A stretch of 63,128 bases of DNA from an uncultured bacterium (GCA_964458305.1 CAYWIH010000008.1:1-63128); one strand, 5' to 3'. Shown: positions 7,359 through 41,695, numbered from the stretch's first letter. The notes: a model not told the origin generated them from the sequence alone. Translations and numbers: made by a program.

Positions 7359-7400
7359 GAATGAGGATTGAGTTGCGATCGGCTCGATCCTCACGATCCT

Positions 7401-7751
<351 letters not shown>

Positions 7752-8039
7752 TTATCGTTACTATCTAACTTATTTTCTACTTCTTCGTTTTCGATCGGGA
7801 TATTCTTTATATTTTTGTTAATCATCCAAATGAGATCTAAGCTCTTAGCAATCGATCGGTAGATTAGTATGGCGTTTAATCTTTTATTGGTGAAATTTGA
7901 CGATCGCACGACTAAAATACGGTTAAAATCCTTAAATAGATCGAACCACTTTTGAGAGAATGTCAATATTTTGATATATTTTTTAGATTTTTAATAATTT
8001 TCTCGGGCGATCGCAATAAATCTTAAAATTATCTGAAGT

Positions 8040-8444
8040 TTATGATTCGAGCCAATTCAACAAAGCTGCTGGCAAGTCTTGTCGCACTCTAGCAGTGGGA
8101 TCGATACAAACGTGTTTGGTATTAGCAATAGCTGCAGATTCTCGATCGGACTGGGCCAAAAAGATAGCATAAGCAATTTCGAATTCACTATCTTTTAAAA
8201 GTTGAGGCTTTAAATTAATTAATAATTTATCTCCAGCAAATAGAGGACGAAAAAAACTGATGTTAGCTTTGACGATGGGAACTGCAGTATTAGAATCCCT
8301 AAAAAACTTTTTGAGATCGATACCAGCTAACAATAAAGATTCTTCGTATGCTTCGTGACAGATAGAGAGAAGTTTAGCAAAAAAAACTACTCCAGCAGCA
8401 TCGGTATCTTCTAAGCGAACGGTACGATAATAATTAAAATTCAT
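8040..8444 (-). CDS. Hotdog-fold thioesterase, probable 1,4-dihydroxy-2-naphthoyl-CoA hydrolase
   Basis: RTVRLEDTDAAGVVFFA-x-CHEAYEESL motif of cyanobacterial DHNA-CoA thioesterases; start moved to the internal ATG. Confidence 0.8.
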   Translation of the reverse strand: MNFNYYRTVRLEDTDAAGVVFFAKLLSICHEAYEESLLLAGIDLKKFFRDSNTAVPIVKANISFFRPLFAGDKLLINLKPQLLKDSEFEIAYAIFLAQSDRESAAIANTKHVCIDPTARVRQDLPAALLNWLES

Positions 8445-8500
8445 GGAAAATAAAGGAGACGAGCGAACCATCTCCTTGATACTTTACTTCGATCGGATTT

Positions 8501-9847: not shown

Positions 9848-9999
9848 TTGACACTCGTAATTATAAAATAATTTATGATAAAAGAAGTTTTACCTAGCCA
9901 ATAGCTTAGCAGAGCGATCGCTCGGTGGCTCTGATATTTTAATTGTTGCTAAATTTTTATTTACATTATTTTAAACTGCTCTTGTCTGGGATCGAATTA

Positions 10000-11298: not shown

Positions 11299-11379
11299 AA
11301 ATTTAGATCTATTTATAAAACATTATCGGTTTATTTATATATTTTAATTTTTGTAAATCTCTGTTTTAAAAAATCTTAT

Positions 11380-12780
11380 TTAACGGCGAGGCAAAACAGA
11401 AGATTCGTGTTTGGCAAAACTATATTTATTAGACCAGGTTTTTATTTCTTCGAGAAACCATTCTCGCTCGTTTTTTGCTATTTTTGCTAAATCGTAAACT
11501 CCATCTTCGGTATTGAGGGTAATTTTTTTATACAATCTAACAATTCCTGGTAAAATTTCTTGATAAGGTTCGATGCTAAAATTCAAAATTTTAGGATATT
11601 GAAATTTTTTCACAGAAAGAGTGATGCCAAAGATATATTTTTCCACAGATAATTTTTCTGCAGACAAATAGATTTTAGTTCCTTCAAAAACAAATATCAA
11701 AGCATAAACAATTAAAATTGGGGCTATAATTGCCAGCCAAAAAATATAATTTACCGCCAAGTTAAAAACAAATATCTGCTTGAAAATAATTAATTTTACT
11801 AAAATCAAAGCCAGCAAAACAGCGTAATCGCGCCAGCCAATCACGTGACTGTTGGGAATATTAATTTTTAAACCTCTTTTAGTTTTATTAACTTCAATCT
11901 TCGATCGCTCGGCTCGATCGCGAGAATTTGTAGAGGGAGATTTTTTAAATAAAAGAGCTTTTTTGGCTTCGGTTGCAGTTTGAAAACGTCGTTGGGGATC
12001 GACATCGGTCATTTTTTCGAGCCATTTGACAAAATTTTTATCTAAATTAACGCGATCGGCAAATTCGAGATGAGATCCAGACTGAGGTAAATCTGCCGGA
12101 GTAATTCCGGTTACTAAATGAATTATAGTCGCGCCTAAAGCGTAAAGATCTGAAGCGGGAAGGGGCTTTCCTAAAAATTGTTCGACAGGAGTATAACCTT
12201 TACCGCCGATCGTATTGAAGCATACTCCTCGAGCCGCAGCAGTAGATTCGATAATGCCGAAACCGATTAAATAAATCTTACCATCCTCTCCTAAAATCAA
12301 ATTAGAGGGCTTAATACCGAGATGAAGGACTTGAGGGTTCAGTTGATGGAGGTAAGTCAAAATATCGAGTATTTCCAGGGCAAAAGAGATTAATTGTTTT
12401 TCAGAGAATTTTTGGCCGGCCTCGAGCAACTCAAACAAAGAAGGCCCTTGAATATATTCTTGAACCAATACGAACCAGATTACACCACCCCCAGCATAGG
12501 TATCGATATCGAAATAATCGATGTATTTGAGAATTTGAGGATGTTCTAGAGTTCTTAAGACTCTAGCTTCTTGTTTGAATAGTTTTAATTGTTCTGCAGA
12601 AGTACCCGGGCTTAAAGCTAACATTCGCAAACGAACTTTTTGTTGGGATACCGAATCTATCGCCAACCAAGTTTGTCGATCGCTAGTAGGAATTATTAAT
12701 TGTCTTTCTAATTGGTAACGATCCTCAATTTTTTCTTTTTCTTCAAACACACTTAACGCCTCATTGCTCGCTCGTTGCAT
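11380..12780 (-). CDS. Hanks-type Ser/Thr kinase homolog with degenerate catalytic motifs (pseudokinase) and C-terminal TM segments
   Basis: Kinase fold motifs (LEHPQILKY, GYTPVEQF, SDLYALG) are present, but VxxK reads VRLR, HRD reads HLG and DFG reads GFG. Confidence 0.85.
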   Translation of the reverse strand: MQRASNEALSVFEEKEKIEDRYQLERQLIIPTSDRQTWLAIDSVSQQKVRLRMLALSPGTSAEQLKLFKQEARVLRTLEHPQILKYIDYFDIDTYAGGGVIWFVLVQEYIQGPSLFELLEAGQKFSEKQLISFALEILDILTYLHQLNPQVLHLGIKPSNLILGEDGKIYLIGFGIIESTAAARGVCFNTIGGKGYTPVEQFLGKPLPASDLYALGATIIHLVTGITPADLPQSGSHLEFADRVNLDKNFVKWLEKMTDVDPQRRFQTATEAKKALLFKKSPSTNSRDRAERSKIEVNKTKRGLKINIPNSHVIGWRDYAVLLALILVKLIIFKQIFVFNLAVNYIFWLAIIAPILIVYALIFVFEGTKIYLSAEKLSVEKYIFGITLSVKKFQYPKILNFSIEPYQEILPGIVRLYKKITLNTEDGVYDLAKIAKNEREWFLEEIKTWSNKYSFAKHESSVLPRR

Positions 12781-12823
12781 TGTATCTTTCTTCTCGCATA
12801 AAACCCACTGCTATTTTCGAGTT

Positions 12824-14125
12824 TCAATCGGATCTAATTTGATTCCACTCTTTAGCCGCATCTTCGATCGCCTTTTCGACAGTTTTTTGTTTTAGCATCG
12901 CACTTTGAAGGTTTTCGTAGATGATTTTTTGGAGTAAATTGAGATTTTTTCTCGGTTTAATTAGTACTTTGGCATCTTTTATCTGAGAAGCACTCACTTT
13001 CATGGCTGCTTCTACTGGAGAAATTGTCGTTCCATCGTTTAATTCTGCAAGATATCGATCGATTCCTGCCACTGTCGAGGGTAATACTTTTGCTGCTTTG
13101 GCAAAAGCGACTTGATTTTCGGTATTAGTTACGTATAGGGCAAATTCGAGGGCTTTATCGGGCTGGTCGGTGCTGCGAGGAATGGCTAAATTCATCACCG
13201 CGACATTTTTCAATCGAGTCGGGCCCGTAATTTGAGGTGCTGAGGCCGATACTTTAGCGATCGAGGGGGCAGAAATAGCGATCGATTCTAAAAATTCGGC
13301 CCCCGAAGCCAGTATTGCCGTTTCTCCTGCTTGATAGAGTTGTATGCCGTAGCGGTGTCCCTGGGTTAATACTTCTCTTGGTAAAAGTTCTTGCTGGTAC
13401 AAATCTACCCAATAGCGAAATGCGGCAATGCCTTCTTTGCTGTTAAATGCTGCCTTGCCTTCTTCATCGACTAATTCGACTCCCATTTGTACGAAAGATT
13501 CTAATACTTCGCTAGAATCTCCGGGTACGAAAGTAATAAAAAAGGCATATTTGCCAGTTTCTTGTTTAATTTTAGCAGCAATTTCAGCCAATTCTTGATA
13601 AGTTTGTGGCGGTTTTTTAATCTTTGCTTTTTGCAATAAATCTTGATTATAAATTGTTATTCGTGTTGTTAAATACCAAGGAACTGCAAAAATTGACTCT
13701 TCACATTTTTGTTGCAAACAAAGTTTAATAGTGCTGGCTTCCCAAATATTTGTTAAGTATTTTTTCTGAATATTTTCTGGTACTTTTTCTGCCAGGTTTA
13801 ACCAGGCTTTGCGCTGAGCTAATTGGGAGGCAAAATTAGGATTTAAATTGACTACGTCTGGAGCAGTTCCTGCGGCTACTGAGGTAAGTATTTTACTTTT
13901 CATATCCCCCCAAGGAACGTCGAGCCAGCGAATTTTATTATTTGTATCCTTAGCTTCAAAATCCGATATCAATTCAGAAAAATATTCTGTAAAATCTGGT
14001 TTTAGTTGCATCGTCCAGAACTCTATTTCGTTATCTGGTTTACTAGAACAGCTATTAAGAGCCAATGACAAGAGAAGGAATATTGTAGAAATGCTGAGAA
14101 CTTTGACTTTTGTTATTCTTTTCAT
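12824..14125 (-). CDS. Sugar ABC transporter substrate-binding lipoprotein
   Basis: Lipobox LALNSC, FWTMQLKP, APDVVNLNP and PWYLTTR; start moved to the ATG at 14125. Confidence 0.85.
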   Translation of the reverse strand: MKRITKVKVLSISTIFLLLSLALNSCSSKPDNEIEFWTMQLKPDFTEYFSELISDFEAKDTNNKIRWLDVPWGDMKSKILTSVAAGTAPDVVNLNPNFASQLAQRKAWLNLAEKVPENIQKKYLTNIWEASTIKLCLQQKCEESIFAVPWYLTTRITIYNQDLLQKAKIKKPPQTYQELAEIAAKIKQETGKYAFFITFVPGDSSEVLESFVQMGVELVDEEGKAAFNSKEGIAAFRYWVDLYQQELLPREVLTQGHRYGIQLYQAGETAILASGAEFLESIAISAPSIAKVSASAPQITGPTRLKNVAVMNLAIPRSTDQPDKALEFALYVTNTENQVAFAKAAKVLPSTVAGIDRYLAELNDGTTISPVEAAMKVSASQIKDAKVLIKPRKNLNLLQKIIYENLQSAMLKQKTVEKAIEDAAKEWNQIRSD

Positions 14126-14303
14126 TGCTAAAATCTTGAGATAATGCATACTTTTAATGGAATCTAAATTAATGAGTGAAACATCGAAAAATGTTTGATA
14201 GAAAACATACAACTAATCGCTCTGTTTCCAGGTAAAGTTAATAGCTAATGACAAATCAAATCCAGCAAATTTGTTATTATTACTCCCTCTATTATAATTC
14301 TGT

Positions 14304-15410
14304 TTGTGGGGAAAAATGTTAAACAACCTCTTTTCCAAATCAAGCCAAGGAATTGGCATTGAAATTACTCCAGCCAAGCTCAATATCGTCCAACTAAGCA
14401 AACAAAAAGACAACTACAAATTAGTCAATAATGTAACAGCAGAGCTACCAGAAGGGCTATTTCAGGAAGGAAAAATTACCGAACCTGCGGCGATCGCAGA
14501 AACGATAGTTTCGACCTTAAAAGAACATAAAATTAAAGCCACAAATGTCGCTACTGCCGTGCCGATGCGGGATGCAATTATCCGCATAATTCCCATTCCT
14601 CAAGAATTAGACGAGGAAGAAATGCGAGACATGATTTTGAATCACGAAGCAGCATTATACTTGCCCTATCCTCGAGAAGAAGTAGATATAGATTACCAAA
14701 AACTGGGCTACTTTCAAGATGAAGATGGGATCGATAAAGTTCAAGTCTTGTTAGTGGCAACACGCAAAGAAGTAACCGATCTGTACTTAGATATTTTCCA
14801 ACAAGCTCAATTGAAGATAGACGTGCTAGAAATCAGCAGTTTTGCCTTAATTAGAGCGATCGAAGATCAATTGACCCAATTTGCCCCTAACGAAGCAGTG
14901 GTGTTAGTAGATATAGAATTCGACAGCACCGAAATCGCGATCGTAGTTGAAGGAGTGCCACAATTTTCTCGCAACGTACCGATCGGAGCGTATCAAATGC
15001 AGAACGCGCTCTCATCGGCAATGAATTTACCTCCTTCGCGAGACATTCAACAGTTACAAGAAATGACGATTATTAATGTCTCTTCGGAGGATTTAGCCAC
15101 AGGTTTGACCTCGATCAATCCGGGAATGGCAGCTTTGTTAAAAGTATTGGCAGAATTAGTCGATGAATTGCGTCGCTCGATTAATTTTTATCTCAACCAG
15201 AGAGGAGATATAGAAGTAGCGCAACTATTGCTAGCCGGGCCGGGAGGAGGAATCGGGCAAATAGATGAATTTTTTACTCAACGTTTGGGAGTTCCCGCAT
15301 CGGCGATCGACCCGATTTCTTCACTATCTTTGGATATAAAACAAGAAATTCCCGCAGTAGAAAGACCCGGATTGGGTGTCGTACTGGGTTTAGGAATGCG
15401 AGAGGTATAA
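14304..15410 (+). CDS. pilM: Type IV pilus assembly protein PilM
   Basis: GIGIEI actin-like N-terminus, EAALYLPYPREEVDIDYQKLG, LLAGPGG and LGLGMREV; probable start at ATG 14316. Confidence 0.93.
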   Translation: MWGKMLNNLFSKSSQGIGIEITPAKLNIVQLSKQKDNYKLVNNVTAELPEGLFQEGKITEPAAIAETIVSTLKEHKIKATNVATAVPMRDAIIRIIPIPQELDEEEMRDMILNHEAALYLPYPREEVDIDYQKLGYFQDEDGIDKVQVLLVATRKEVTDLYLDIFQQAQLKIDVLEISSFALIRAIEDQLTQFAPNEAVVLVDIEFDSTEIAIVVEGVPQFSRNVPIGAYQMQNALSSAMNLPPSRDIQQLQEMTIINVSSEDLATGLTSINPGMAALLKVLAELVDELRRSINFYLNQRGDIEVAQLLLAGPGGGIGQIDEFFTQRLGVPASAIDPISSLSLDIKQEIPAVERPGLGVVLGLGMREV

Positions 15411-19396: not shown

Positions 19397-19495
19397 AAAT
19401 ACTCAAGGATGTATCGCAATTATACAAGCTTACTATTGTTAATTTTCAATCGCAGATGATAATAATAGTCTTTTTAAGATCGATCTCGACCTTTT

Positions 19496-19635
19496 AAAAA
19501 CTATTGCGCCCAGAAATTAGTATTTTTGTCTGGCTCTCGAGGGGTTGAAAAAACTATTGCGCCCGGAAATTAGTATTTTTGTCTGGCTCTCGAGGGTTGA
19601 AAAAACTATTGCGCCCGGAAACTAGTATTTTTGTC
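19496..19635. repeat. Intergenic tandem repeat, about 2.7 copies of a 52-53 bp unit
   Basis: AAAAACTATTGCGCCC(A/G)GAAA(T/C)TAGTATTTTTGTC(TGGCTCTCGAGGG(G)TTG); CTATT starts at 19501, 19554 and 19606. Confidence 0.92.
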
Positions 19636-19735
19636 AAAAATAGTCTAATCTTCCCAGAGCAAAAAACTAATTAAATAATTAATAATTTGAGGAGTGAGGA
19701 AATTAATTCTTTAAAATTAAAGTATATGTAGAAAG

Positions 19736-20023
19736 TTGGAAAAAGTGGTGACGAACAAAAATTTACTACTAACCCTAACGATCGGCTTAACTTTAGGAAT
19801 TAGTTCTTGTAGTTCCGTACAAACAAATATGTCTCGAACTTTTGCCGATTGGACTAATAGAGAAGCATATATTAAGTGTTATTCTGGAGGCAAATTAATT
19901 TTTGATAGCGAATCAGACGGGAAAGTATTTTCTGAAAAAGATTCTGACGGTTATGTTTTTATCGATAAAAAAGATGGCAAACTAAAAGAAGTTTCTGGCG
20001 ATTGTATCGTTAATTATAAATAA
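19736..20023 (+). CDS. Small hypothetical lipoprotein
   Basis: Hydrophobic signal peptide with lipobox ISSC and a beta-rich mature part carrying two further Cys. Confidence 0.7.
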   Translation: MEKVVTNKNLLLTLTIGLTLGISSCSSVQTNMSRTFADWTNREAYIKCYSGGKLIFDSESDGKVFSEKDSDGYVFIDKKDGKLKEVSGDCIVNYK

Positions 20024-20074
20024 GCGAATATACGTTAATTAATTATTAGTGATTTAGATAAAATAAGAGATTTT

Positions 20075-21034
20075 TTATTTATTGCGATCGGTTTCGGCTA
20101 TTTTCATAACTTCAGTTAAATTTGGGCAATAAGTTTCTAAGTTAAAAGTAGCTGGATTGACTGGATCTTGATAAGTAAAATGGCGATAATCGAGGCTAAA
20201 TCGACTCCAATCGTCCATTTGAATGCGAAAAACATTAATAAAAAAGTTCGCCAACCAAATCGATAACCGAATGCGAAAATAGATTTTTTTATTGAGATAA
20301 TTACAAATTTCTTCTACTGCTCGATCGACCGTAATTGCAGCATTACCTAATACTATTTTTGTAATTTCATTTGCGGATGAATGTTCGGGAGGATGTTCGA
20401 TTAAATATAATATTACTAAAGCAATATCTCGGGCGTGGATAAAATGAAAACTACCGTCAGCTTTTAACCAGCGAATTAAATCGATCCATTTAACTACTTC
20501 TGGCAAACCTCCAGAAATATGAGAGAGGGGTTTGTTTTTATCTCCTCCCAGCACTAAAGTCGGAAAAACTACTGTGATTTTTGGGGCTATATTTAATTTA
20601 GATAATTCCTCGAAACATTCGTATTTAGTGCTAATGTAGTCCGTGCCGTATTTGCTGGCTTCTGGTAATAATTGATTTTGGCGATCGAGAATGCTAGCAG
20701 TAGAAAAATAGATTATTTGTTGACAAACTTGAGGGGAAAGTAACTCGATTAATTCGATGGTTTTATTAATATTAATTTCTCGCGATTCTGCTTCTCCACC
20801 CCAAGCAGTGGCGGCTAAAATTGCCGTGTCAATAGTTTGCAATAAATCTTTATGTCGGGCGATATCCCGGAGATCTCCGGTGAGGATATTAACTCGATCG
20901 CAATTTTGAAGATTGATTTTTAATCGATCGGGATTTCTAAGTAAAAGAAATAATTCGTGTTCGGTCGATTCGATTAAGGCTTCTGTTAGGTAATGACCGA
21001 TACAACCGCTAGCACCCGTTAAAAAAATTCGCAT
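20075..21034 (-). CDS. NAD-dependent epimerase/dehydratase (extended SDR)
   Basis: MRIFLTGASGCIG Rossmann motif, YFSTASIL and YxxxK (YISTK). Confidence 0.88.
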   Translation of the reverse strand: MRIFLTGASGCIGHYLTEALIESTEHELFLLLRNPDRLKINLQNCDRVNILTGDLRDIARHKDLLQTIDTAILAATAWGGEAESREININKTIELIELLSPQVCQQIIYFSTASILDRQNQLLPEASKYGTDYISTKYECFEELSKLNIAPKITVVFPTLVLGGDKNKPLSHISGGLPEVVKWIDLIRWLKADGSFHFIHARDIALVILYLIEHPPEHSSANEITKIVLGNAAITVDRAVEEICNYLNKKIYFRIRLSIWLANFFINVFRIQMDDWSRFSLDYRHFTYQDPVNPATFNLETYCPNLTEVMKIAETDRNK

Positions 21035-21083
21035 TGCATTATTTATTAAATGTTAGAGGAGAAAGTAGAAAGTCGATCGCGAT

Positions 21084-21117
21084 AAAAAAATACAAGGCGA
21101 TCGGTACACCTTGTATT
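21084..21117 (-). terminator. Intrinsic terminator downstream of the large surface-protein gene
   Basis: AATACAAGG/CCTTGTATT stem with a plus-strand A-run that is a U-run on the minus strand. Confidence 0.6.
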
Positions 21118-21177
21118 GTTACTTAGACTTATTTACTGAGAAAAAAAACTTACAAAGTCTTTTTAATCTAGCAGTTC

Positions 21178-21273
21178 TTAAGCAAGAGAAGTAAATACAG
21201 ATAGCGAGCCAAAAGCAATCACATCCGATCTGCCGTCACCGTTAAGATCTGCTAGTTCGCTAAAAGGCTTGGC
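21178..21273 (-). other. Cryptic in-frame FG-GAP/VCBS-like repeat after the TAG stop of the surface protein
   Basis: Translating on past the TAG gives AKPFSELADLNGDGRSDVIAFGSLSVFTSLA followed by TAA. Confidence 0.75.
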
Positions 21274-24200
21274 CTAAATTGGTCGTCCTTCGTTAAATCC
21301 AAACTCAATATAGTGGATCGTTGCAGCATTTAAATCATTGCCAAAAGCCGCTTGCAGATCTGGATTATTACTCAAGTAAGAATTAGGATTGAAACTGTCT
21401 GTCGCTCTTCCTTCGTTAAATCCAAACTGAATGTAGTGTATGTTTGCGTCATTTAATATTACATCCAATCTTTGATTGCCAAAAACTGGAATTAAATCTG
21501 TGTTAGACGCAAGGTATCGAGCTTCATCAAAAAGGTCTAAAGGCCTTCCTTCGGTGAATCCCGATTCAATATACTGTTGAGTCGCATTGTTTAAAGCAAT
21601 GTCTATTGGCTGAACATTATTGCCGAAAGCAGAGATTAAGTCTGGATAGGAAGCAAGATATGCAGTTTCGTTAAATATATCTAAGGGTCTTCCTTCATTT
21701 ATTCCAAATTGATTGTACTGAACTTCTGCTGCTTCTAAAGCTCCATCGAAAGGAAGACCACCAAAAGCTTGAATTAAATCATCATTAGAAGCAAGATATT
21801 GAACGAGATCGATTCTACCTTCATTAAATCCCGATTCAATATACTGTTGAGTTGCTGCATTTAAATTATTGCCGAATGCAGCAGCTAAATCGGGGTAACT
21901 AGTTAAGTACGAACTTGGATTAAAAGTGGTTACAGGTCTTCCTTCATTAAATCCAAACTGAATAAAGTGTTGAGTTGCCGCACTTAAAGCTTCATCGAAA
22001 GGAAGATTTCCAAAAGCTTGAATTAAGTCAGGATTAGACGCAAGATATTTAGCTTCATCAAATCTATCTGTTGGTCTTTGTTCGTTAAATCCAAATTGAA
22101 TAAATTGCTCGTTGGCAGAATTTATTGCTTCATCGAAAGGAAGACCACCAAAAGCCAAAATTAAATCTGCATTCGAAGCAAGATACTGTGCTGGATCTAT
22201 TGGAGGAATCGTTCTAAATTCAAACGCGCCAATATCGACTGTATTGTTAGAAATCCGATCGAATCCTGTGCTTCTTTGATCCGTAATTACTCCATCGAGA
22301 ATACCAGCGTTATTTCCGGCATCGATCGCGAGAGATCCGGGGAGTAAAGCTTGAGTGAAGGTAGCTCCGCCATTATCTTGTAGGGGCCCTAATAAAGGAT
22401 CTAATGGATTTACTGCCGATCCGACGATATCGCCGTTAACTCCGTTTGTAAACGCACCGAAGGTAGTATCGCCGTTGCCGATTAAGTTGTTGCCGTTAGA
22501 GATAAATTCACCTATGCCAACAATATCGTTAGCGTCAGCATTTGCGGCAATAATACTGTTAGCTACAAAAGTAACGCTGCTTTTCTCACCATAAACGCCG
22601 CCGCCTCTGAAGCCAGCAGAATTATCGGAAATGGTGCTGTTAACTACCGATAGGAAACTGGAATATTCGTTATAAATACCGCCACCTTTTGAATTGGCAG
22701 AATTACCGGAAACAGTGCTGTTAACTACAAAAGTAATACTGTTATACTCGCTGTAAATACCGCCGCCTTCACTAGCGGAGTTGCCAGAAATCGTACTGTT
22801 CAGTATTAATACGTTACTTTCGTCGCTGTAAATACCGCCGCCTTCTTGATTAGACGAATTATCGGCGATCGTACTGTCAACTACAACAAGAGTACTATTA
22901 TAGTCGCTGTAAATACCGCCGCCTTCACTATTAGCCGAGTTGCCGGAAATGCTGCTGTTATTTACAGTTAAAGTACTAAAATAACCACTGTAAATACCGC
23001 CGCCTTCTTGATTAGCAGAATTGCCGGAAATGATACTGTTATTTACAGTTATACTACTGTACTCACCACTGTAAATACCGCCGCCTTCTTGATTAGCAGA
23101 ATTATTCCCGATCGTGCTGTTATTGACCGAGATATTGCTGTAATTCTGGCCGAAAATACCGCCGCCATCTTGATTAGCAGAATTATCCGCGATCGTGCTG
23201 TTATTTATCGAGATATTGCTGTAACTATCGCCGTAAATACCACCGCCATCTTGATTAGCAGAATTATCCGCGATCGTGCTGTTATTTACAGTTACGCTAC
23301 TATAATCGTAAGAGTAAATACCGCCGCCTCGAGTGGTGGCTGAGTTGCCGGAAATGGTGCTGTTGCTAATAGTTAAATCTTCAGCATTATAAATAGCACC
23401 ACCAATAGAAGAACTTCCGCCAGTGATAGTCAATCCGTCGATAGTGACGTTGCTAAAAGTATTATAATCACTATCGTCAATATTAAAGACGCGGCTAGAT
23501 CCTCCAGCATCTACTATTATGCCGAGGTTAGCACCATCAATAACAACGCTTTTATCAACTAATAATTGACCGTAAGTAGCGTTGAGGCTAATTGTACTCG
23601 TACCCGGGCTGACGATCGAGGAGTCGAAAGTAATCGTTCCACCTTCAGCAATAACATCTAAAGCATCGCGTAAAGAAACTTCACCAGTTGCAATGCCATC
23701 GTTTTCGTCGATTAAAGTATCGACAACTAAAGATGTCGGTCTAAGTTCAAACGCACCAATATCAACCGCACTATCAACAATGCGATCGAAGGTTGTTCCT
23801 CTTTGATCGTTTGTTAAACCGCCAGCTAAACTGTCAGCACCAGCATCTACCGCTGAAGAATTAGGATCTAATGCTTGAGTAAAAGTAGGCCCGCCATTAT
23901 CTTGTAGCGGCCCGAGTAAAGGATCTTCTGGTGTTGCTGCCGTACCGACAATATCGCCAGCAGTTCCATCTACAAATACTGTTTGACCGTCGCCATTGCC
24001 AATTAAGTTATTGCCATCGGTAATAAAAGTACCAACACCATCGAGGTCATTGTTATTAACGTTTGCCGCAATAATACTGTTACCGATAGATATGGTACTA
24101 GTGTATGTAGTTGTATTACCATCAGTGTAATAACCACTGTAAACAGCAGCACCAGTGCCGGATGAATTCCCCGATATAGTGCTGTTGGTTACCGATATAA

Positions 24201-25191
24201 TATTATTGCCGTAATTGCCGCCAACAATAGCACCATCATCAGTAGCAGTATTTCCCGATATAGTGCTGTTGGTTATGGTTGTAGTGCTATCAAAGTTATA
24301 AATAGCACCGCCACTAGAGTTAGAAGAATTTCCCGATATAGTACTATTCTCTACGGATAAAATACCATATTGATTGTCAATAGCACCCCCGTTACCGGAA
24401 CTAGCGATATTATCCGCTATAGTGGTGCTATCTACAGCTAAGCTACCAGTAGCAATATCAACAGCACCGCCCGAAGCTGCAATATTATTCGATATACTGC
24501 TATAAGCTACGTATCCAGCACCACTACCTTGATAAATAGCACCAGCTCGATCGACAGCCGAATTACCTGATATATCGCTGTTATATACAGATAAAGTACC
24601 GTTAACGTAAATAGCACCGCCTCGATCGTTAGCTGTGTTGCCAGAAATAGTGCTATTTATAACTGCTAAAGATTGATTGGTTTGAACACCACCACCATAT
24701 TCAGCAACGTTATTAATAACATCACTGTTATATAGCGCGATCGTACCGCCCGAGATACCACCACCGTAGCCGCCACCAAGAGTATCAGCAGTAGCTAAGT
24801 TACCAGAAATAGTGCTGTTGCTAATATTTAAGTTTTCAGCATTAAAAATACCGCCACCATTACCACCAGAGAAACTTCCTCCAGTAATAGTTAATCCTTC
24901 AATAGTTACATTGCTAACATTAGCAGTATTGCCGTCATTAATATTAAAAACGCGGCTATTGCCTTGCGCGTCTACAGTAATGTTAGCATCAGTACCATCA
25001 ATAATTAGGTTTTTATCGATCGATAATTCACCTAACATCATATCGAGGTTAATAGTGCCATTAAAAATAGCAGTATCAAAAGTAATCGTGTCGCCAGCAA
25101 CACTTTGTGCTAAAGCTTCACGTAAAGAAGTACTGCCATTAGAAATAGCATCATTTTCGTCTGTTAAGGTGTTAACAGTAATAATAGCCAT
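21274..25191 (-). CDS. Large repetitive surface/secreted protein: two CSLREA-like + right-handed beta-helix + choice-of-anchor-Q-like modules, then 7 C-terminal YLASNxDL...FGFNEGR repeats
   Basis: SLREAL and SLRDAL, many GGGIY/NSTISGNSA repeats, two DPLLGPLQDNGGxTFTQAL...DIGAFE blocks; no obvious Sec signal peptide. Confidence 0.88.
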   Translation of the reverse strand: MAIITVNTLTDENDAISNGSTSLREALAQSVAGDTITFDTAIFNGTINLDMMLGELSIDKNLIIDGTDANITVDAQGNSRVFNINDGNTANVSNVTIEGLTITGGSFSGGNGGGIFNAENLNISNSTISGNLATADTLGGGYGGGISGGTIALYNSDVINNVAEYGGGVQTNQSLAVINSTISGNTANDRGGAIYVNGTLSVYNSDISGNSAVDRAGAIYQGSGAGYVAYSSISNNIAASGGAVDIATGSLAVDSTTIADNIASSGNGGAIDNQYGILSVENSTISGNSSNSSGGAIYNFDSTTTITNSTISGNTATDDGAIVGGNYGNNIISVTNSTISGNSSGTGAAVYSGYYTDGNTTTYTSTISIGNSIIAANVNNNDLDGVGTFITDGNNLIGNGDGQTVFVDGTAGDIVGTAATPEDPLLGPLQDNGGPTFTQALDPNSSAVDAGADSLAGGLTNDQRGTTFDRIVDSAVDIGAFELRPTSLVVDTLIDENDGIATGEVSLRDALDVIAEGGTITFDSSIVSPGTSTISLNATYGQLLVDKSVVIDGANLGIIVDAGGSSRVFNIDDSDYNTFSNVTIDGLTITGGSSSIGGAIYNAEDLTISNSTISGNSATTRGGGIYSYDYSSVTVNNSTIADNSANQDGGGIYGDSYSNISINNSTIADNSANQDGGGIFGQNYSNISVNNSTIGNNSANQEGGGIYSGEYSSITVNNSIISGNSANQEGGGIYSGYFSTLTVNNSSISGNSANSEGGGIYSDYNSTLVVVDSTIADNSSNQEGGGIYSDESNVLILNSTISGNSASEGGGIYSEYNSITFVVNSTVSGNSANSKGGGIYNEYSSFLSVVNSTISDNSAGFRGGGVYGEKSSVTFVANSIIAANADANDIVGIGEFISNGNNLIGNGDTTFGAFTNGVNGDIVGSAVNPLDPLLGPLQDNGGATFTQALLPGSLAIDAGNNAGILDGVITDQRSTGFDRISNNTVDIGAFEFRTIPPIDPAQYLASNADLILAFGGLPFDEAINSANEQFIQFGFNEQRPTDRFDEAKYLASNPDLIQAFGNLPFDEALSAATQHFIQFGFNEGRPVTTFNPSSYLTSYPDLAAAFGNNLNAATQQYIESGFNEGRIDLVQYLASNDDLIQAFGGLPFDGALEAAEVQYNQFGINEGRPLDIFNETAYLASYPDLISAFGNNVQPIDIALNNATQQYIESGFTEGRPLDLFDEARYLASNTDLIPVFGNQRLDVILNDANIHYIQFGFNEGRATDSFNPNSYLSNNPDLQAAFGNDLNAATIHYIEFGFNEGRPI
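22600..23350. repeat. Intragenic array of about 81-bp (27-aa) near-identical repeats
   Basis: CCGCCATCTTGATTAGCAGAATTATCCGCGATCGTGCTG recurs at 23162 and 23243; protein unit NNSTIADNSANQDGGGIYGDSYSNISI. Confidence 0.85.
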
Positions 25192-25552
25192 ATTCGATTT
25201 TTTGTAATTATTTGCGAGCTAGTTTGTCACCAAAATATTAAAGCTTTTTTTCCCTAAAAGCAACAAATGAAGTGTCTTTATCAAACTAGGTTATTTCAAG
25301 TATTATTTAACACTAAAAAAAGCGAAAAATAAGAATTTAAAACGTATTATTCTAGACATTGACAAAGAAAATAAGTAATATTATCATTTTTTTATTCGAC
25401 AGTTAATTAAAAAATAAACAATAAAAATAGTATTATAAATGACTTCAAAAACCTTAAAATTTTGCTATTCAAATTGCGATATAGTTAACAATAACCCCCT
25501 TTATAAAACAATATAAAAATTAAAAGTTTCAAAAAAACCACTCAAAAAAGCA

Positions 25553-28500
25553 ATGAATCAAACTAAAAACGATCCTAATGCCCCGTTAAACAGCATACAT
25601 ACAAATACTTTTCCCAATCTTTTAAAACAAACAGGAATATCTTTAGTAGTTTCGACATATCAAGCCGGTAAATTAATCGTAGTTAGGGCCGATCGAGATA
25701 AGCTTAATACCCATTTTCGAGTATTTAATAAACCGATGGGTTTGGCGGCAACCAGAGAAAAAATAGCATTAGGTACGGCAGCAAAAATTATCGAGTTTCG
25801 TAACGTACCAGCTACCGGACAAAAATTAAATCCGCCGGGGCTTCACGATGCCTGTTTTTTACCTCGAAATATCCACATCACCGGAGATATTGACATTCAT
25901 GAAATGACCTGGGTAGAAGACGATTTATGGTTTATAAATACTCGTTTTAGCTGTCTTTGTACTTTAGATAATAAGTATAGTTTCGTACCTCGTTGGCGGC
26001 CGCCTTTTATCAGTCAATATGACTTGCGCGATCGCTGTCATTTAAACGGTTTGGCGGCAAAAGATGGTAAGCCTAAATATGTCACTGCATTAGGTAATAC
26101 CGATACTCCAGCCGGATGGCGAGCTAATAAAGCGTCGGGCGGTATTTTAATGGATATCGACACTAACGAGTTTATTTTAACTGGCTTGTCGATGCCCCAC
26201 TCTCCTCGTTGGTATCGCGATAAGTTATGGGTATTAGAGTCGGGTAAAGGAAGTTTGTCGGTAGTAGATACGGAAAAAGGAGAAACGACTACAGTTACCC
26301 AGTTACCCGGTTTTACTAGAGGTTTAGATTTTTGGGGGGATTTCGCTTTTATTGGCTTATCTCAAGTCAGAGAAACTGCTGTTTTTAGCGGCATTCCTTT
26401 AACCAAAACTCAAACAGAAAGAATTTGCGGCGTTTGGGTAGTTAATATCGTTTCCGGCGAAACTGTCGCCTTTTTGCGCTTTACCGAAGCAATTCAAGAA
26501 ATATTTGCTGTTTCCGTATTGCCGGGAATTCGCTTTCCTGAAATAGTAGATTATAACGATGGTTTGTTAGCTAATTCTTATGTTTTACCAAACGAAGCTT
26601 TAGCCGAAGTAGTTCAGCCTTCACAAGATTGGGAATTCGCACAAACTCACCTCGATCGCGGCAATAAATTATACGGAAAAGGCTCTTTAGAAGAGGCAAT
26701 AAAATCCTATCGTCGCTGTTTGGAAATACAAGCTGATTTTCTGCCAGCCAGATACAATTTGGGAGTAACTTTAGGGGATCTCGATCGCTTTGAAGAAGCC
26801 ATTATCGAACTGAATCAAGTTATCGATGCCGAAGCTTCCCATGCCGATGCTTATAACAGTTTGGGTTACGTTTATAGCCAGTTAGATCGCTTAGATGATG
26901 CGATCGATCGCTACGAAAAAGCTATTAAAATTCGTCCCAAATTCCCTAAAGCGCATCACAATTTAGGAATGATCTTATTGAAAAAAGGCGAATTTAAACG
27001 GGGTTGGCAAGAATGCGAGTGGCGTTGGCAAACCGATACTTTTACTCCTTTAAAATGTCCGCATCCGCGTTGGCAAGGTGAAGAAATTGATGGAACTTTA
27101 TTAATACATACCGAACAAGGTGCGGGGGATGCAATTCAATTTAGTCGCTTCATTCCTCTTGCTGCTAAAAGATGTAAAAAAGTTATTGTCGTTTGCACTG
27201 CTAATTTAAAACCTTTATTCGCAAATATACCGGAAATTGCTGAAATTTACGAAGCTGGAGAAATTTCTGAAAAAGCATTCGATACTTACATCGCGATCAT
27301 GAGTTTACCTCTGGTTCTCGATATCGATTTAAATAACCTTCCCGCCGAAGTTCCTTACCTTAAAACTACCAAAAAGTCAAGATACGATTTTCCAGCTGGG
27401 GAGACTAACATCGGTATAGTTTGGGCCGGAAGTCCGACATTCGGTAACGATCGCTTTAGATCTTGTCATCTAAAAGATTTTCTCCCCATACTACAAGTTC
27501 CCAATATTAATTTTTACAGCCTGCAAAAGGGCGAGAAAAGCAAACAACTAGAATCTTTACCAGAAGAGATAAATATTACCGATTTAAGCGATTATATCGA
27601 AGATTATGGCGATACCGCAGCAATTATCGATCGATTAGATCTAGTCATTAGCGTCGATACTTCTGTAGCCCATTTAACTGGTGCTTTAGGGAAACCGATC
27701 TGGACTCTTTTAGGATACAATGCTGACTGGCGTTGGTTGTTAAACAGAAACGACTCCCCTTGGTATCCTACCATGCGCTTGTTCCGGCAGAAAAAACACC
27801 GAGAGTGGCCCGAAGTATTTGAGAGGGTAATTGCAGAATTAGAAAAATCTTTCAGCGATCGCCCTAATATTGTCAAAAAACAGCGTCGAATAGTCAAAAT
27901 ACAAAATAAACCAGCAGTAGACTCTTTTGCTGTTATCGTCCCAGCTTACAACGTGATTAGCAACCAGGGAGAAGAAGTATTATTAAATACCCTCAATAGT
28001 ATCGATCGCAGCATAGCAGTTTTTCAAAAAGAATATCCCAATGCTAATAAAGTGGGGATAGAAGTTATTTTAGTCGATGACGGATCTTCGGATACTACTC
28101 CAGAAGTATTAGAAAGAGAAGCAAAAAATAGGCAGTTTTTTAGGTCAGTAAACCATTCAACTAATAAAGGTCAATCTGCGGCAAGAAATACTGGGGTAAA
28201 AGAATCGAATGGTGGAGCGATCTTTTTCTGCGATGCTGATGATTTATACTTAAAAAATCACATCTTACAATCTTTTGCTATCCTCAATCAAACTGCACCA
28301 CCAAAAGCAAAAGAAACCGTCTCTAATTTTAACGGCTATCCAGCAGCAGTCAAAACTAAAATTAAATTCGCAGATTCGATCCATCCCGAATGGAAAAAAA
28401 GAGTAGAATTCGTCCATACTCTTAATTTATGTTTGCGAAGAGAAGCCCACGAATTCATTCAAGGTTTTCCCGAAGATAATGCTTTTCGCGAATGCAGTTA

Positions 28501-28747
28501 TAGTAACGAAGATTGGGCTTATTCTGTTTGGTTGCATCAGTTTTTCCAAATATTATTAATTAACAAAGAAACTGTGGAATACATTCGCTACCCCGGCAAT
28601 CATTTAGACAGACAATTATTGAGATTTCAGCAAGCACCAGGACAATATCAAGAAGCAATTACCGAAAGCGATCGCCAACTATTAGTAGAAATAGAATCGA
28701 TTATCAAAAAGCGATCGAACCTGCTCAAAACTATGGTAAATTGTTAG
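25553..28747 (+). CDS. TIGR03032/DUF4915 domain + TPR repeats + GT-B (GT9-like) domain + GT2 domain fusion protein
   Basis: STYQAGKL, TGDIDIHEM, DRCHLNGLA and LSMPHSPRW (TIGR03032); TPRs such as AYNSLG; EQGAGDAIQFSRF, LDLVISVDTSVAHLTGALG and DSPWYPTMRLFRQ; VILVDDGSSD, SAARNTG and FCDADD. Confidence 0.88.
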   Translation: MNQTKNDPNAPLNSIHTNTFPNLLKQTGISLVVSTYQAGKLIVVRADRDKLNTHFRVFNKPMGLAATREKIALGTAAKIIEFRNVPATGQKLNPPGLHDACFLPRNIHITGDIDIHEMTWVEDDLWFINTRFSCLCTLDNKYSFVPRWRPPFISQYDLRDRCHLNGLAAKDGKPKYVTALGNTDTPAGWRANKASGGILMDIDTNEFILTGLSMPHSPRWYRDKLWVLESGKGSLSVVDTEKGETTTVTQLPGFTRGLDFWGDFAFIGLSQVRETAVFSGIPLTKTQTERICGVWVVNIVSGETVAFLRFTEAIQEIFAVSVLPGIRFPEIVDYNDGLLANSYVLPNEALAEVVQPSQDWEFAQTHLDRGNKLYGKGSLEEAIKSYRRCLEIQADFLPARYNLGVTLGDLDRFEEAIIELNQVIDAEASHADAYNSLGYVYSQLDRLDDAIDRYEKAIKIRPKFPKAHHNLGMILLKKGEFKRGWQECEWRWQTDTFTPLKCPHPRWQGEEIDGTLLIHTEQGAGDAIQFSRFIPLAAKRCKKVIVVCTANLKPLFANIPEIAEIYEAGEISEKAFDTYIAIMSLPLVLDIDLNNLPAEVPYLKTTKKSRYDFPAGETNIGIVWAGSPTFGNDRFRSCHLKDFLPILQVPNINFYSLQKGEKSKQLESLPEEINITDLSDYIEDYGDTAAIIDRLDLVISVDTSVAHLTGALGKPIWTLLGYNADWRWLLNRNDSPWYPTMRLFRQKKHREWPEVFERVIAELEKSFSDRPNIVKKQRRIVKIQNKPAVDSFAVIVPAYNVISNQGEEVLLNTLNSIDRSIAVFQKEYPNANKVGIEVILVDDGSSDTTPEVLEREAKNRQFFRSVNHSTNKGQSAARNTGVKESNGGAIFFCDADDLYLKNHILQSFAILNQTAPPKAKETVSNFNGYPAAVKTKIKFADSIHPEWKKRVEFVHTLNLCLRREAHEFIQGFPEDNAFRECSYSNEDWAYSVWLHQFFQILLINKETVEYIRYPGNHLDRQLLRFQQAPGQYQEAITESDRQLLVEIESIIKKRSNLLKTMVNC

Positions 28748-28936
28748 CTATTTATAAAATAGGAAAAAGATTTATTTTTTGAGTAAAGAGAATAAAGGCG
28801 ATCGAGAGCTGATTTTTGATATTCTCAACACCAAAACTCTTTACTCGTTACTCATACCAATTCTCAAGGGTTAGCTAGATAGATAAACAATTTATTTAGT
28901 AATTACGATCGATCTTTGAATAGATTGTTATTTCTG

Positions 28937-28963
28937 TACCGACGTACCATCCTACGTCCCTAC
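28937..28963. repeat. GTAG-type REP-like palindromic repeat, copy 2
   Basis: GTACCGACGTACCATCCTACGTCCCTAC, similar to 107-135. Confidence 0.6.
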
Positions 28964-29003
28964 TTCTGACTTCTGACTTTTGACTCCTGACTTCTGACTT
29001 CTA
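28962..29003. repeat. Heptamer tandem repeat (ACTTCTG)x6, STRR-like
   Basis: acttctg acttctg acttttg actcctg acttctg acttcta, ending just before the GT9 ATG. Confidence 0.85.
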
Positions 29004-29006
29004 ACT

Positions 29007-30143
29007 ATGGAAATATTCTCAAATCAAACCTTGCGATCGCGCCCTCATATCGCCATTTTTTCATCTACTAAAATCGGTAACTTTGTAATTACTACCCCAC
29101 TTTTGAGAGGATTAAAAGAAAAATATCCCGACTGCATTCTCGATTTTTTTGGCAGCGAAATAACCAAAGATTTTGAAAAAAATTGCCCTTATATTGACTG
29201 GCGATTTTCCCTTTATAATTCCAGTTTAGACTTTCTTGAAAACTTAACCCATGCCGTGAAGCAACGTCGCCAAATTGCCGGAGATTACGACTTAGCAATT
29301 AACTGCGATCAATTTAGCGAAATTAATTTAGTTACTATTACAGCTTTGCGCCCAAAATACGTCGTCGGAGCAGTATTATCGCCTGATTTTCGCTTAAAAA
29401 TAGACCCTAATAATCACCCAGTTCAAAAAATATTAAACGAAAAAGATTGGAATTCCCAAGAATTTTTACAGCGCAATAAAAATATCTTAAAAAGCAATTA
29501 TATAGCCGAAATTTTTTGTAGAATAGCTTATGTAGAAACCGATTACTTTAAACTAGAACTACCCCAATCTTCCCCCAATTTTACAGTCCCAGATATCTTA
29601 ATTAGCACCACCGCAACCCGTCCCGCAAAAATGTGGCCCGCCAACTATTGGAAACAAGTCATTACTTGGTGTCGCACTCAAAACTTGACCGTTGGCTTGC
29701 TCGGTAATACCCCAAAAATTCAGCAACAACTATACTATGCCGATAATATCGAAACAGATATTTTGAACGATACCGACGCGATCGATCTCAGAGGTAAAAC
29801 TAGCTTAACTCAATTAGCCGGGGCTTTAGCAAAAGCTAAGGCTTGTCTTACCATCGATACCGGAACTTTACATATAGCTGCTGCTGTCGGTTGCCCTACC
29901 GTAGCTATTTTTGGTAACAATATTAACGGTAGCGGTGCGAGTCCGATCCGACTTTGGTCGCCCAGAACCCCAGAAATTACGATCGCCTTTTCACAGTATA
30001 ATTGTACTATCTGCGAAGATAACCATTTTAAAAACAAATCTTGTGCGATCGAAAATCATCCTTGCATGAAATATCTTACCCCACAAACGGCGATCGATCT
30101 GCTCCAACTTGCCTTACAACCAAGCCCGGCAACTGTTTTATAA
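29007..30143 (+). CDS. Glycosyltransferase family 9 (heptosyltransferase-like)
   Basis: KIGNFVITTPLLRGLKEKYP, KMWP, DLRGKTSLTQLA, IDTGTLHIAAAVGCPTVAIFG and a C-terminal CxxC...C...C. Confidence 0.88.
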   Translation: MEIFSNQTLRSRPHIAIFSSTKIGNFVITTPLLRGLKEKYPDCILDFFGSEITKDFEKNCPYIDWRFSLYNSSLDFLENLTHAVKQRRQIAGDYDLAINCDQFSEINLVTITALRPKYVVGAVLSPDFRLKIDPNNHPVQKILNEKDWNSQEFLQRNKNILKSNYIAEIFCRIAYVETDYFKLELPQSSPNFTVPDILISTTATRPAKMWPANYWKQVITWCRTQNLTVGLLGNTPKIQQQLYYADNIETDILNDTDAIDLRGKTSLTQLAGALAKAKACLTIDTGTLHIAAAVGCPTVAIFGNNINGSGASPIRLWSPRTPEITIAFSQYNCTICEDNHFKNKSCAIENHPCMKYLTPQTAIDLLQLALQPSPATVL

Positions 30144-30144
30144 T

Positions 30145-31191
30145 TTAGTATCTATACTCCTTAGCAGTAGCAAAGAAATGCTCGACATTTTCTTCAGGAG
30201 TTCCGACTAAAACACCGTGACCTAAGTTCATAATATGACCCCGATCGCCAGCTTTCTTAATCGTATCCAAAATGCGATCGCCAATAAAATCTTTCGAACC
30301 AAACAAGACACCAGGATCCATATTACCCTGTACTTTCATTTCCTTGCCCAATCTAGCCCGTGCTTCTGCCATATCCAGAGTCCAGTCTACACTGACAATA
30401 TCTACCCCAGACTGAGCCATTCTCTCCAAAACTCCCGCACTGCCGCTAATATATAAAATCAAAGGAGTATCGGGGTGAGTTTCTTTTACTTGCTTGACAA
30501 CTCGCTGATGATATGGTAAGGCAAAAGTTTCGTAATCTTGAGGAGAAAGTTCCCCAGCCCAAGAATCGAACATTTGTACCACCTGCGCGCCGCAATCGAT
30601 TTGGTAGCGGATATAAATAGCGATCGAATCGGCAATATGGGCTAAAAACTGGTGTAACATTTTCGGCTGAGAAAAAGCCATCCCTTTAATAACCGAATAA
30701 TTTTTCGAACTTTTCCCTTCAATAGCATAAGCCGCTAAAGTCCAAGGTGCGCCGACAAAACCCAAAACAGTAGATTTATTACCTACCTCGCTGCGAAGAG
30801 AATTGAGGATAGTTTTAATAAAAGGAAGGGACTCCGAAGGATCTAAAGTACGTAAATTATCGATTTGTGCTTGAGTGCGGATCGGAGGATCGATAATCGG
30901 CCCTTTGCTTTCAACGATATCAAAATTAATCCCCATGCCCGGAAGCGGAGTTAAAATATCGGAGAACATAATTACCCCATCCGGTTGAAAAGCCCGCCAG
31001 GGTTGTAAAGATATTTCAATAGCCAGATCGGGATTTTCGGAGCGATCGCGAAAACTGGGATATTTTTCCCGTAAATCGCGATAAACTTTCATGTAGCGTC
31101 CAGCTTGGCGCATCATCCACACAGGAGGGCGATCGACTTTTTCGCCTCGAGCTGCTTTTAATAGTAAGGGAACTCCGTTTGACTCTGACAT
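30145..31191 (-). CDS. hemE: Uroporphyrinogen decarboxylase
   Basis: [37 protein letters not shown] and NLGHG. Confidence 0.97.
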
Positions 31192-31254
31192 GGCAATTAC
31201 AATTGATATTTAAGCGCATTTGTTAGCTTATCATTCAATTATCCTTAAATCGTT

Positions 31255-32160
31255 CTATTGCAAAAATTTTAAAATTCCACTCGCCCCATCCAACTCTACC
31301 ATTTGTCCTGCTCGCAAAGCAGCATTAGCCCCGTCGTGGCCGAAAGGAAGATCCCAAACGATAGGAATATTGAGATCGCAAGTTCGATCGCGCCATACTT
31401 CAGCTACAGTCCAGCTAAAAGAGTCTTTAGGAGCATCGCAGCGACTAAAACGCCCCAAAGCCAACCCTTTAATTTTTTTTAATATTCCGCTCGATCGCCA
31501 CTGGGTCAACATTCGATCGATACTGTAGGGCAATTCGCTAACATCTTCAAAAGCGAGGACAATATTATTAAAATTAAGCTGCAAGGGAGTTGCTAACAAA
31601 TGAGTAGCTACGGTAAAATTGGCAGGCAATAGTATCCCTTTTGTTTTGCCACCACCCCAACCGATACCTTGAAGGGGTTGTAAACTGCGACCTTCAACTA
31701 AATCGAACAACCGCTCGATCGACCAATCCGGTTCTTTTGCTAAAGTAGTTAAAACCGGCCCGTGAATTCCTGCAATCCCGATTTTAGCCAAACTCCACAA
31801 TAAAGCCGTAATATCGGAAAAGCCAATTAACCATTTAATATTTTCTTCTGTTTGCCAACTCCAATCTTCTAACAATCTCGTGCTACCGTAACCTCCCCTA
31901 GTACAGACGATCGCCTTAGAGAGTGGGTTTTGCCAAGCTAATTTTAAGGCCGATCTGCGAAGATCTTCATTACCAGCCAGATAACCGTAACGAGTTTTAT
32001 AATTAGCAGCTAATTTGATTTTATATCCGCGCGATCGCCATACTTCGAGACCTTTTTCTAAAGCAAGTTCGTCTTTTAAAGCACCGCTTGGCGCAACAAC
32101 TTCTAATAAATCTCCTGGCTTTAATGCTGGCGGTAATTTTAAGGGAGTAAATTGTTCCAT
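31255..32160 (-). CDS. LD-carboxypeptidase (peptidase S66)
   Basis: VVAPSG, RGGYG, GFSDITAL (Ser), FEDVSE (Glu) and LPFGH (His). Confidence 0.9.
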   Translation of the reverse strand: MEQFTPLKLPPALKPGDLLEVVAPSGALKDELALEKGLEVWRSRGYKIKLAANYKTRYGYLAGNEDLRRSALKLAWQNPLSKAIVCTRGGYGSTRLLEDWSWQTEENIKWLIGFSDITALLWSLAKIGIAGIHGPVLTTLAKEPDWSIERLFDLVEGRSLQPLQGIGWGGGKTKGILLPANFTVATHLLATPLQLNFNNIVLAFEDVSELPYSIDRMLTQWRSSGILKKIKGLALGRFSRCDAPKDSFSWTVAEVWRDRTCDLNIPIVWDLPFGHDGANAALRAGQMVELDGASGILKFLQ

Positions 32161-41692: not shown

Positions 41693-41695
41693 TGT

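Follow-up and report, generated by a model that had tools for sequence, protein, structure and literature searches.

What would a large beta-helix protein without a signal peptide gain from a gene that stands back to back with one for a soluble, multidomain glycosyltransferase? We asked this of three genes at positions 21274-30143 of the window, by which we mean the whole stretch of DNA analyzed, a 63,128-nucleotide contig (C8) in the 5.0-Mb, 99% complete genome of an uncultured cyanobacterium. Open reading frame (ORF) calls and profile matches define a beta-helix protein of 1305 amino acids (P0001, 21274-25191, minus strand), a four-domain enzyme of 1064 amino acids (P0002, 25553-28747, plus strand), and a GT9-family glycosyltransferase of 378 amino acids (P0003, 29007-30143, plus strand). 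The original prediction for this DNA held that the two enzymes are dedicated to glycosylating their neighbor before its export. We put the probability that a soluble cytoplasmic tailoring enzyme would glycosylate this signal-peptide-less neighbor before export at roughly 55%. What speaks for such a dedicated system is the recurrent pairing of this kind of enzyme with this kind of client; other conceivable supports, namely an adjacent epimerase, a conserved GT9 partner, kinship with Aah/TibC or HMW1C, and an abundance of sequons, fell away on inspection.

The N-terminal domain of P0002 belongs to DUF4915/TIGR03032, and the prediction had proposed as a check how often TIGR03032 genes neighbor large repetitive secreted proteins. 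Of 61 related genomes, 37 contain the family (36 with a match over the cut-off), as stand-alone proteins of ~360 amino acids, as proteins of ~780 amino acids, and in forms of 1000-1400 amino acids. Our census took in all 61 above-cut-off matches in 60 related genomes, the host being excluded, which gave 59 loci in 35 genomes. A locus was scored as positive if a protein of at least 400 amino acids encoded within two genes carried an RTX, FG-GAP, cadherin-like, Calx-beta, DUF4347, or beta-helix domain or resembled P0001 in blastp. On this basis 25 of the 59 loci were positive, spread over 22 of the 35 genomes and 20 genera. Multidomain family members accounted for 10 positives among 20 loci (L004, L005, L009, L010, L012, L014, L016, L017, L022, and L023) and the remaining members for 15 among 39 (L024, L029-L032, L037, L039, L041, L049-L051, L053, L056, L059, and L062); L029 and L030 also carry the type I secretion genes HlyD and ABC-C39 exporter. 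Left out of the count were L025 (GSDH and PPC), L040 (an alkaline phosphatase of 1195 amino acids), L046 (subtilase and LGFP), and L060 (1266 amino acids, no family), and several contigs, such as L028 and L061, were too short to judge.

As controls, a script picked 60 random 14-kb loci in 13 of these genomes. No control locus had a qualifying neighbor, although one held a TPS/CHAT protein (L092) and another an unannotated ORF of 1686 amino acids (L103). Even with these two counted as control hits, a Fisher test gives p = 1.5e-7 and an odds ratio of 21 (25/59 versus 2/60), and the same 13 genomes alone give p = 1.0e-7 (14/25 versus 2/60), values that overstate the case because related genomes cannot be counted as independent observations. 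The abundance of RTX genes in this set of genomes is a further caveat to the census. The check nevertheless came out on the side of the prediction, with 25/59 against 0-2/60 random loci, and the placement of TIGR03032 genes beside giant secreted proteins beyond chance points to an as yet undescribed route by which such proteins may be decorated before export.

A more specific association also emerged. A hidden Markov model (HMM) of the beta-helix/choice-of-anchor-Q module of P0001, run at one threshold on both test and control loci, matched at 6 of the 59 TIGR03032 loci (L012, L014, L017, L020, L051, and L056) and at none of the 60 controls; the link between enzyme and beta-helix protein is not peculiar to one genome. 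At four of these (L012, L014, L017, and L020) the module adjoins the same DUF4915-TPR-GT9-like architecture as in P0002; the stop and start codons of the pair overlap at L012, and at L020 a module fragment at the contig end and the enzyme gene are transcribed away from each other, the arrangement also seen in the window. A different fusion, DUF4915-TPR-GT41, adjoins FG-GAP proteins at 3 of 4 loci (L004, L005, and L016).

A scan with the GT-B domain of P0002, limited to one genome per species, returned 629 relatives in many phyla, from which 76 loci were kept. Most relatives are TPR-GT-B proteins of ~450-650 amino acids without DUF4915, some of them in tandem arrays, and DUF4915 is fused to GT-B at only 9 of the 76 loci. 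The beta-helix module is adjacent at 3 of these 9 loci, compared with 0 of the 66 without DUF4915, and it is therefore the DUF4915 part that accompanies beta-helix clients. The three loci are L127 (which repeats L012), L129 (Oscillatoriales cyanobacterium USR001), and L134, from a proteobacterial metagenome-assembled genome (MAG). The last is the clearest operon-like case of the pairing, with five co-directional beta-helix/choice-of-anchor-Q genes (441-589 amino acids) around one DUF4915-TPR-GT-B gene at 3143-13430. Among 14 sampled loci of GT-B relatives without DUF4915, two adjoin flagellar genes (L154, with FlgD and FliK; L198, with FlbT and FlaF). Tandem GT-B paralogues without DUF4915 number seven at L139 (Sporomusa silvacetica DSM 10669, 3818-14758) and five at L165.

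What DUF4915 itself might contribute is suggested by the company it keeps within single proteins. The family is large, with 3,940 representatives at E <= 1e-10, and a literature search that included preprints, with subscription journals outside its coverage, found no publication naming DUF4915 or TIGR03032. In a sample of 49 proteins, every third of the best 150 DUF4915 proteins with partners assigned by Pfam, the domain is joined to GT41 in 10, mostly with TPR and once also with GNAT, to Sulfotransfer_3 in 11, two of which also have an Asp/Asn beta-hydroxylase domain, to GNAT without GT41 in 4, and to GT2 in 2. Another 5 have TPR only, 12 have extra sequence without a listed family, and 5 are stand-alone DUF4915 proteins of up to ~420 amino acids. 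GT41 and Asp/Asn hydroxylases are protein-modifying families. Among relatives of the host, GT41-bearing DUF4915 paralogues occur at L004, L005, L006, and L016. In P0130 and P0181 an Asp/Asn beta-hydroxylase, Sulfotransfer_3, and DUF4915 are combined in one chain, a hint that one set of clients may be modified in more than one way.

These fusions also bear on a rival reading in which DUF4915, whether as enzyme or as chaperone, has a part of its own in making giant secreted proteins, for example by maintaining export competence, and the transferases fused to it act on some other molecule. Such a role would account for the 15 of 39 loci at which stand-alone genes of ~360 amino acids lie beside RTX or FG-GAP proteins without a fused transferase. 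It would also suit the conservation of the domain, whose 57 cyanobacterial copies share 24 invariant columns, a good number of these being polar and reminiscent of an active site (D, H, C, R, and E, including D99, C134, D160, H163, H216, R219, R256, R273, and E316), as well as its weak profile match to the beta-propeller enzyme soluble glucose dehydrogenase (E 0.012). DUF4915 also shows a weak internal repeat (E 0.011), and an ESM Atlas search with this part of P0002 retrieved only TIGR03032 clusters. An enzymatic role of its own may belong to DUF4915. Against a separate sphere of action stands the rarity of the solitary form in the sample, where 44 of 49 members exceed ~420 amino acids and 27 of 49 carry a recognized transferase or hydroxylase domain; so persistent a fusion argues that both activities act on the same target. 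We consider this rival reading very unlikely, and return to DUF4915 as a candidate guide of transferases to their clients.

P0002 is a clear member of the family and the only copy in its genome. In order, it comprises DUF4915/TIGR03032, TPR, a GT9-like GT-B domain, and GT2. The first of these (amino acids 15-335, 25595..26557, plus strand, as are the other three) scores 422.9 bits against TIGR03032, with a cut-off of 251.5, and 446.4 against PF16261, with a cut-off of 35; TPR repeats matched by profile follow at about amino acids 363-485 (26639..27007). In the GT-B domain (amino acids 488-775, 27014..27877) the motifs HTEQGAGDAIQF and VDTSVAHLxGALGKP are conserved, and PF01075, the GT9 profile, is matched by 15 of 15 orthologous GT-B domains with a best E of 1.3e-7; a PDB profile search with this domain of P0002 found nothing. 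The GT2 (GT-A) domain, from residue 794 (27932..28744), scores 75.3 bits, and its VILVDDGSSD and FCDADD motifs are intact. TPR is present in all 16 of its closest relatives (E <= 1e-45) and DUF4915 in 11 of them; it belongs to a subfamily tied to the TPR/DUF4915 context. The closest homologue, P0005, has 76% identity in the GT2 region, and a scan of metagenome contigs with P0002 found no relatives. No hydrophobic segment was detected in P0002 (maximum KD19 1.39), consistent with a soluble protein.

The proposed client, P0001, matches Beta_helix (84.8 bits) and Chlam_PMP repeats, and it is a choice-of-anchor-Q protein, with two copies of NF041518 scoring 136.6 bits against a cut-off of 25. It was built by tandem duplication of one module, as alignment shows, followed by seven C-terminal repeats. 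All its parts lie on the minus strand: module 1 (amino acids 1-495, 23707..25191) contains an N-terminal ...SLREAL... motif and choice-of-anchor-Q domain 1 (23743-23925), and module 2 (amino acids 491-995, 22207..23721) contains domain 2 (22216-22401). Neither a signal peptide or N-terminal hydrophobic leader nor a membrane-strength hydrophobic segment was found in P0001, a hidden leader being excluded because the ATG is preceded, 10 codons upstream, by a stop codon, and Pfam recognized no autotransporter domain in it. The C-terminal repeats (34-48 amino acids each, YLASNPDLIQAFG...HYIQFGFNEGR, amino acids 1003-1305, 21277..22185) matched no Pfam family and led only to unnamed clusters in the ESM Atlas. 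Of 61 related genomes, 16 contain similar repeats, borne by ORFs of ~100 to 3585 amino acids, and such repeats also lie at G000:C232:4-495 and G000:C67:7462-7728. As a feature shared by clients they were rejected, since an HMM of the repeat matched no ORF in any other TIGR03032 locus fetched; they may be an undescribed module for surface anchoring or secretion.

Composition might be read as a sign of glycosylation. P0001 is rich in G (13.2%), N (11.5%), S (11.2%), and T (8.0%), and the NST and NSS motifs to which the prediction drew attention are present in numbers (13 and 6, respectively). It contains 42 N-x-S/T sequons, 40 of them within residues 1-1000, compared with 28.0 +/- 4.5 in 2000 shuffles (maximum 45), an excess that is modest yet real. 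Most of it arises because the rung motif NSTISGN repeats, and in alignments this motif is invariant across related beta-helix modules. We therefore rejected sequon saturation as evidence of N-glycosylation and regard the NST/NSS motifs as generic structural rungs of a beta-helix. The rungs form a regular surface that is rich in Asn, Ser, and Thr, yet this is no evidence that any of them is glycosylated.

A beta-helix fold raises an alternative of its own, in which the glycosyltransferases build an extracellular glycan and P0001, like the beta-helix and RTX neighbors at other loci, is a secreted glycan-active or glycan-binding protein of a shared polysaccharide pathway. The right-handed beta-helix is common in polysaccharide lyases and epimerases, mannuronan epimerases that combine beta-helix and RTX parts process alginate, and GT2 and GT9 enzymes usually act on glycans. 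Some TIGR03032 loci fit this picture, with extra GT2 or GT4 genes near L014, L050, and L053 and a polysaccharide export gene near L026. Yet FG-GAP and cadherin-type adhesin-like proteins, in which a glycan-enzyme fold is absent, are linked to DUF4915 just as well, and DUF4915 is fused to the protein-acting GT41 and Asp/Asn-hydroxylase domains. At the locus itself, no flippase, polymerase, or export gene is present in the inserted block, and neither P0002 nor P0003 has a membrane segment. Together these features make a shared polysaccharide pathway unlikely, if still worth keeping in mind, and leave modification of the protein as our preferred interpretation.

Whether the three genes form a unit can be judged from their flanks. 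Downstream of P0001 lies a gene for an SDR/epimerase of 319 amino acids (P0004, 20075-21034, minus strand), to which the original prediction had drawn attention. Of 61 related genomes, 58 encode a single orthologue of the epimerase (51-82% identity), genomes without TIGR03032 among them; in a same-genus genome (L123; epimerase at 9544-10479, hemE at 10649-11692) and two relatives (L124 and L125) the epimerase gene directly adjoins hemE. From this adjacency it follows that P0001, P0002, and P0003 (21274-30143) are a three-gene insertion and travel together as one block, and we rejected the epimerase as a component; it is a core gene that forms the old flank of the insertion. No compositional signal of transfer was seen, the block having 39.1% GC and the window 38.2%.

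P0003 came with the block, and to that extent its proposed membership stands. It is a GT9 enzyme by its match to PF01075 (83 bits against a cut-off of 22, profile positions 103-239), its best solved relatives are lipopolysaccharide (LPS) heptosyltransferases (E 1.3e-6), and with no hydrophobic segment detected it is predicted to be soluble. As a conserved partner it failed, since no relative was found at E <= 1e-10 in 60 related genomes; a pattern scan of genome contigs for P0003 likewise found none.

An insertion whose third gene has no relatives in related genomes invites the view that adjacency is coincidental, with P0002 and P0003 decorating LPS or another envelope glycan and P0001 merely sharing a horizontally acquired island. 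The 34 of 59 TIGR03032 loci that have no large repetitive neighbor within two genes would suit it as well. It is harder to reconcile with a roughly twenty-fold enrichment over random loci, with the recurrence of this module and this enzyme architecture side by side in further genera and a proteobacterial MAG, and with a block whose composition is like that of its surroundings. We judge coincidence distinctly unlikely, and take the recurrent neighborhood as a sign that P0001 would be the client of P0002.

On that interpretation, the insertion would encode a protein-tailoring module with the divergently transcribed P0001 as its client. DUF4915 and TPR of P0002 would dock this large, repetitive protein, and the fusion patterns described above make substrate recognition by these domains plausible. 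The GT9-like GT-B domain would then attach a first sugar, and the GT2 domain, together with the separate P0003, would extend or diversify the glycan. The donor sugar is probably not heptose, and modified P0001 would leave the cell by a Sec-independent route. A client without a signal peptide and enzymes without a hydrophobic segment fit modification in the cytoplasm. P0001 as the acceptor, the binding domain, the order of sugar transfers, and the export of P0001 are parts of the scheme that we infer.

Besides the shared ancestry of the genomes surveyed, several results weigh against this scheme. Characterized GT2 and GT9 enzymes are mostly directed at glycans or lipids. The match of the P0002 GT-B domain to GT9 is limited to the nucleotide-sugar motif, with only profile positions 177-217 aligned, and lies at the cut-off score (22.0-24.4 bits against 22). 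Pfam searches found neither RTX nonapeptide repeats (PF00353) nor a recognized secretion signal in P0001, so its export is assumed from relatives, and P0001-related proteins at L014, L017, and L051 do have PF00353 repeats. On the side of the census, the 34 loci without a qualifying neighbor outnumber the positives, and 10 of the 14 closest P0002 orthologues have no such neighbor by the original criterion. Pfam listing thresholds also differed between test sets (1e-6 and 1e-8) and controls (1e-10), with nearly all positives far below 1e-10. To these are added the orphan status of P0003 among related genomes and the loss of the sequons as an argument.

Comparison with known systems places the block close to one enzyme in logic and apart from others in build. 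FlmG of Caulobacter crescentus is a cytoplasmic flagellin O-glycosyltransferase in which TPR binds flagellin and GT-B sets the donor (PMC7591256; bioRxiv 10.1101/2022.03.25.485807). P0002, likened to it by architecture, is also soluble with TPR followed by GT-B, and in both cases the client would be modified and then exported without a Sec signal, which for P0001 is a proposal. P0002 differs in having an extra DUF4915 in front and a GT2 behind, and its proposed client is a beta-helix protein instead of flagellin. In architecture and logic FlmG is the closest analogy.

The systems invoked by the original prediction offer a looser parallel. In the Aah/AIDA-I and TibC/TibA (BAHT) systems, an adjacent cytoplasmic heptosyltransferase-like GT-B enzyme hyperglycosylates a beta-helical surface protein before export (PMC4358343), and the window likewise has a GT-B enzyme gene next to that of a beta-helical protein. 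With the BAHT model TIGR04414, P0003 reaches 16.4 bits, far from the cut-off of 200, and TIGR04414 is not among the 25 listed of 39 family matches for P0002. BAHT protomers, with a beta-barrel and an iron-finger, form a dodecameric ring (PMC4358343), whereas P0002 has DUF4915 and TPR. P0001, without a signal peptide or autotransporter barrel, is not a Sec-dependent autotransporter client. Heptose is unlikely as the donor because gmhA and rfaE of the ADP-heptose pathway were not detected: in the 99% complete genome nothing matched gmhA at E <= 0.001, and rfaE domain I had no match over its cut-off.

HMW1C-type (GT41) enzymes act in the cytoplasm on a nearby-encoded large beta-helical adhesin, HMW1; the sugar is placed at N-x-S/T sequons and in some cases lengthened by another enzyme (PMC3012730; PMC10507012). 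Other DUF4915 fusions bear TPR and GT41; P0002 has no GT41 domain, PF13844 being unmatched in it at E <= 0.01. HMW1 also uses two-partner secretion, and HMW1C systems are not known to include a DUF4915 domain. By the TIGR04414 and GT41 profile results, neither P0002 nor P0003 belongs to the Aah/TibC or HMW1C families, and the block would resemble these systems in its working while differing in build. A last comparison is with the cyanobacterial RTX surface proteins SwmA and oscillin, large repetitive proteins that leave the cell without a Sec signal and for which glycosylation is reported (PMC3034196); P0001 differs from them in lacking RTX repeats.

The associations of DUF4915 invite a wider proposal, which we advance tentatively and at somewhat under even odds: that in DUF4915 many soluble enzymes have a common module for docking clients or for co-catalysis, among them glycosyl-, sulfo-, and acetyltransferases and Asp/Asn hydroxylases, which would decorate giant Sec-independent secreted proteins (RTX, FG-GAP, cadherin-like, and beta-helix) in the cytoplasm before export in many phyla, the window being a beta-helix instance. 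The genomic partners of DUF4915 are giant repetitive proteins that form much of the cyanobacterial cell surface. To our knowledge, dedicated cytoplasmic glycosylation of surface proteins is limited to a few systems, namely HMW1C, Aah/TibC, and the flagellin enzymes FlmG and Maf, and we know of no enzyme identified as glycosylating SwmA or oscillin. If the wider proposal is correct, it would amount to a general post-translational modification system not described before. Our reading of the window, if it holds, would give a function to TIGR03032 and supply candidate enzymes for the glycosylation reported for cyanobacterial RTX surface and motility proteins. It would also provide soluble modular enzymes, a docking domain with an exchangeable transferase, of possible use in glyco-engineering.

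In its layout the locus is as first described, with ORF calling and profile searches reproducing the gene content, domains, coordinates, and AT-rich divergent spacer. The spacer (25192..25552) is 361 bp long with 22.2% GC and contains the best sigma-70-like promoter match in the region, TTGACA-17-TATCAT on the plus strand at 25359-25387, a consensus match only. A terminator-like hairpin, identified by consensus match, separates the P0001 stop codon from the epimerase gene and has an 11-bp stem followed by a T run (21089..21117, minus strand); it is the strongest such site within 19400-31400, a region in which their total count is not above that of shuffles. The flanks are formed on one side by the housekeeping genes pilMNOQ and purN and on the other by hemE and genes for an LD-carboxypeptidase, an ArsR regulator, and NDH-2.

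Elsewhere in the window, a 554-amino-acid PMT_2 (dolichyl-phosphate-mannose protein mannosyltransferase-like) protein at 49726-51390 (minus strand) adjoins a UbiE-type methyltransferase gene and is a membrane glycosyltransferase unrelated to the inserted block. At 40505-45449 (minus strand) a patatin-like phospholipase, an 840-amino-acid lipoxygenase that begins with a C2 domain, and a fatty-acid desaturase are encoded in a row; the three may form a bacterial oxylipin cluster, and its C2 domain would be unusual in bacteria. At 10000-12780 (minus strand), a DUF815 AAA ATPase gene adjoins one for a Ser/Thr protein kinase.

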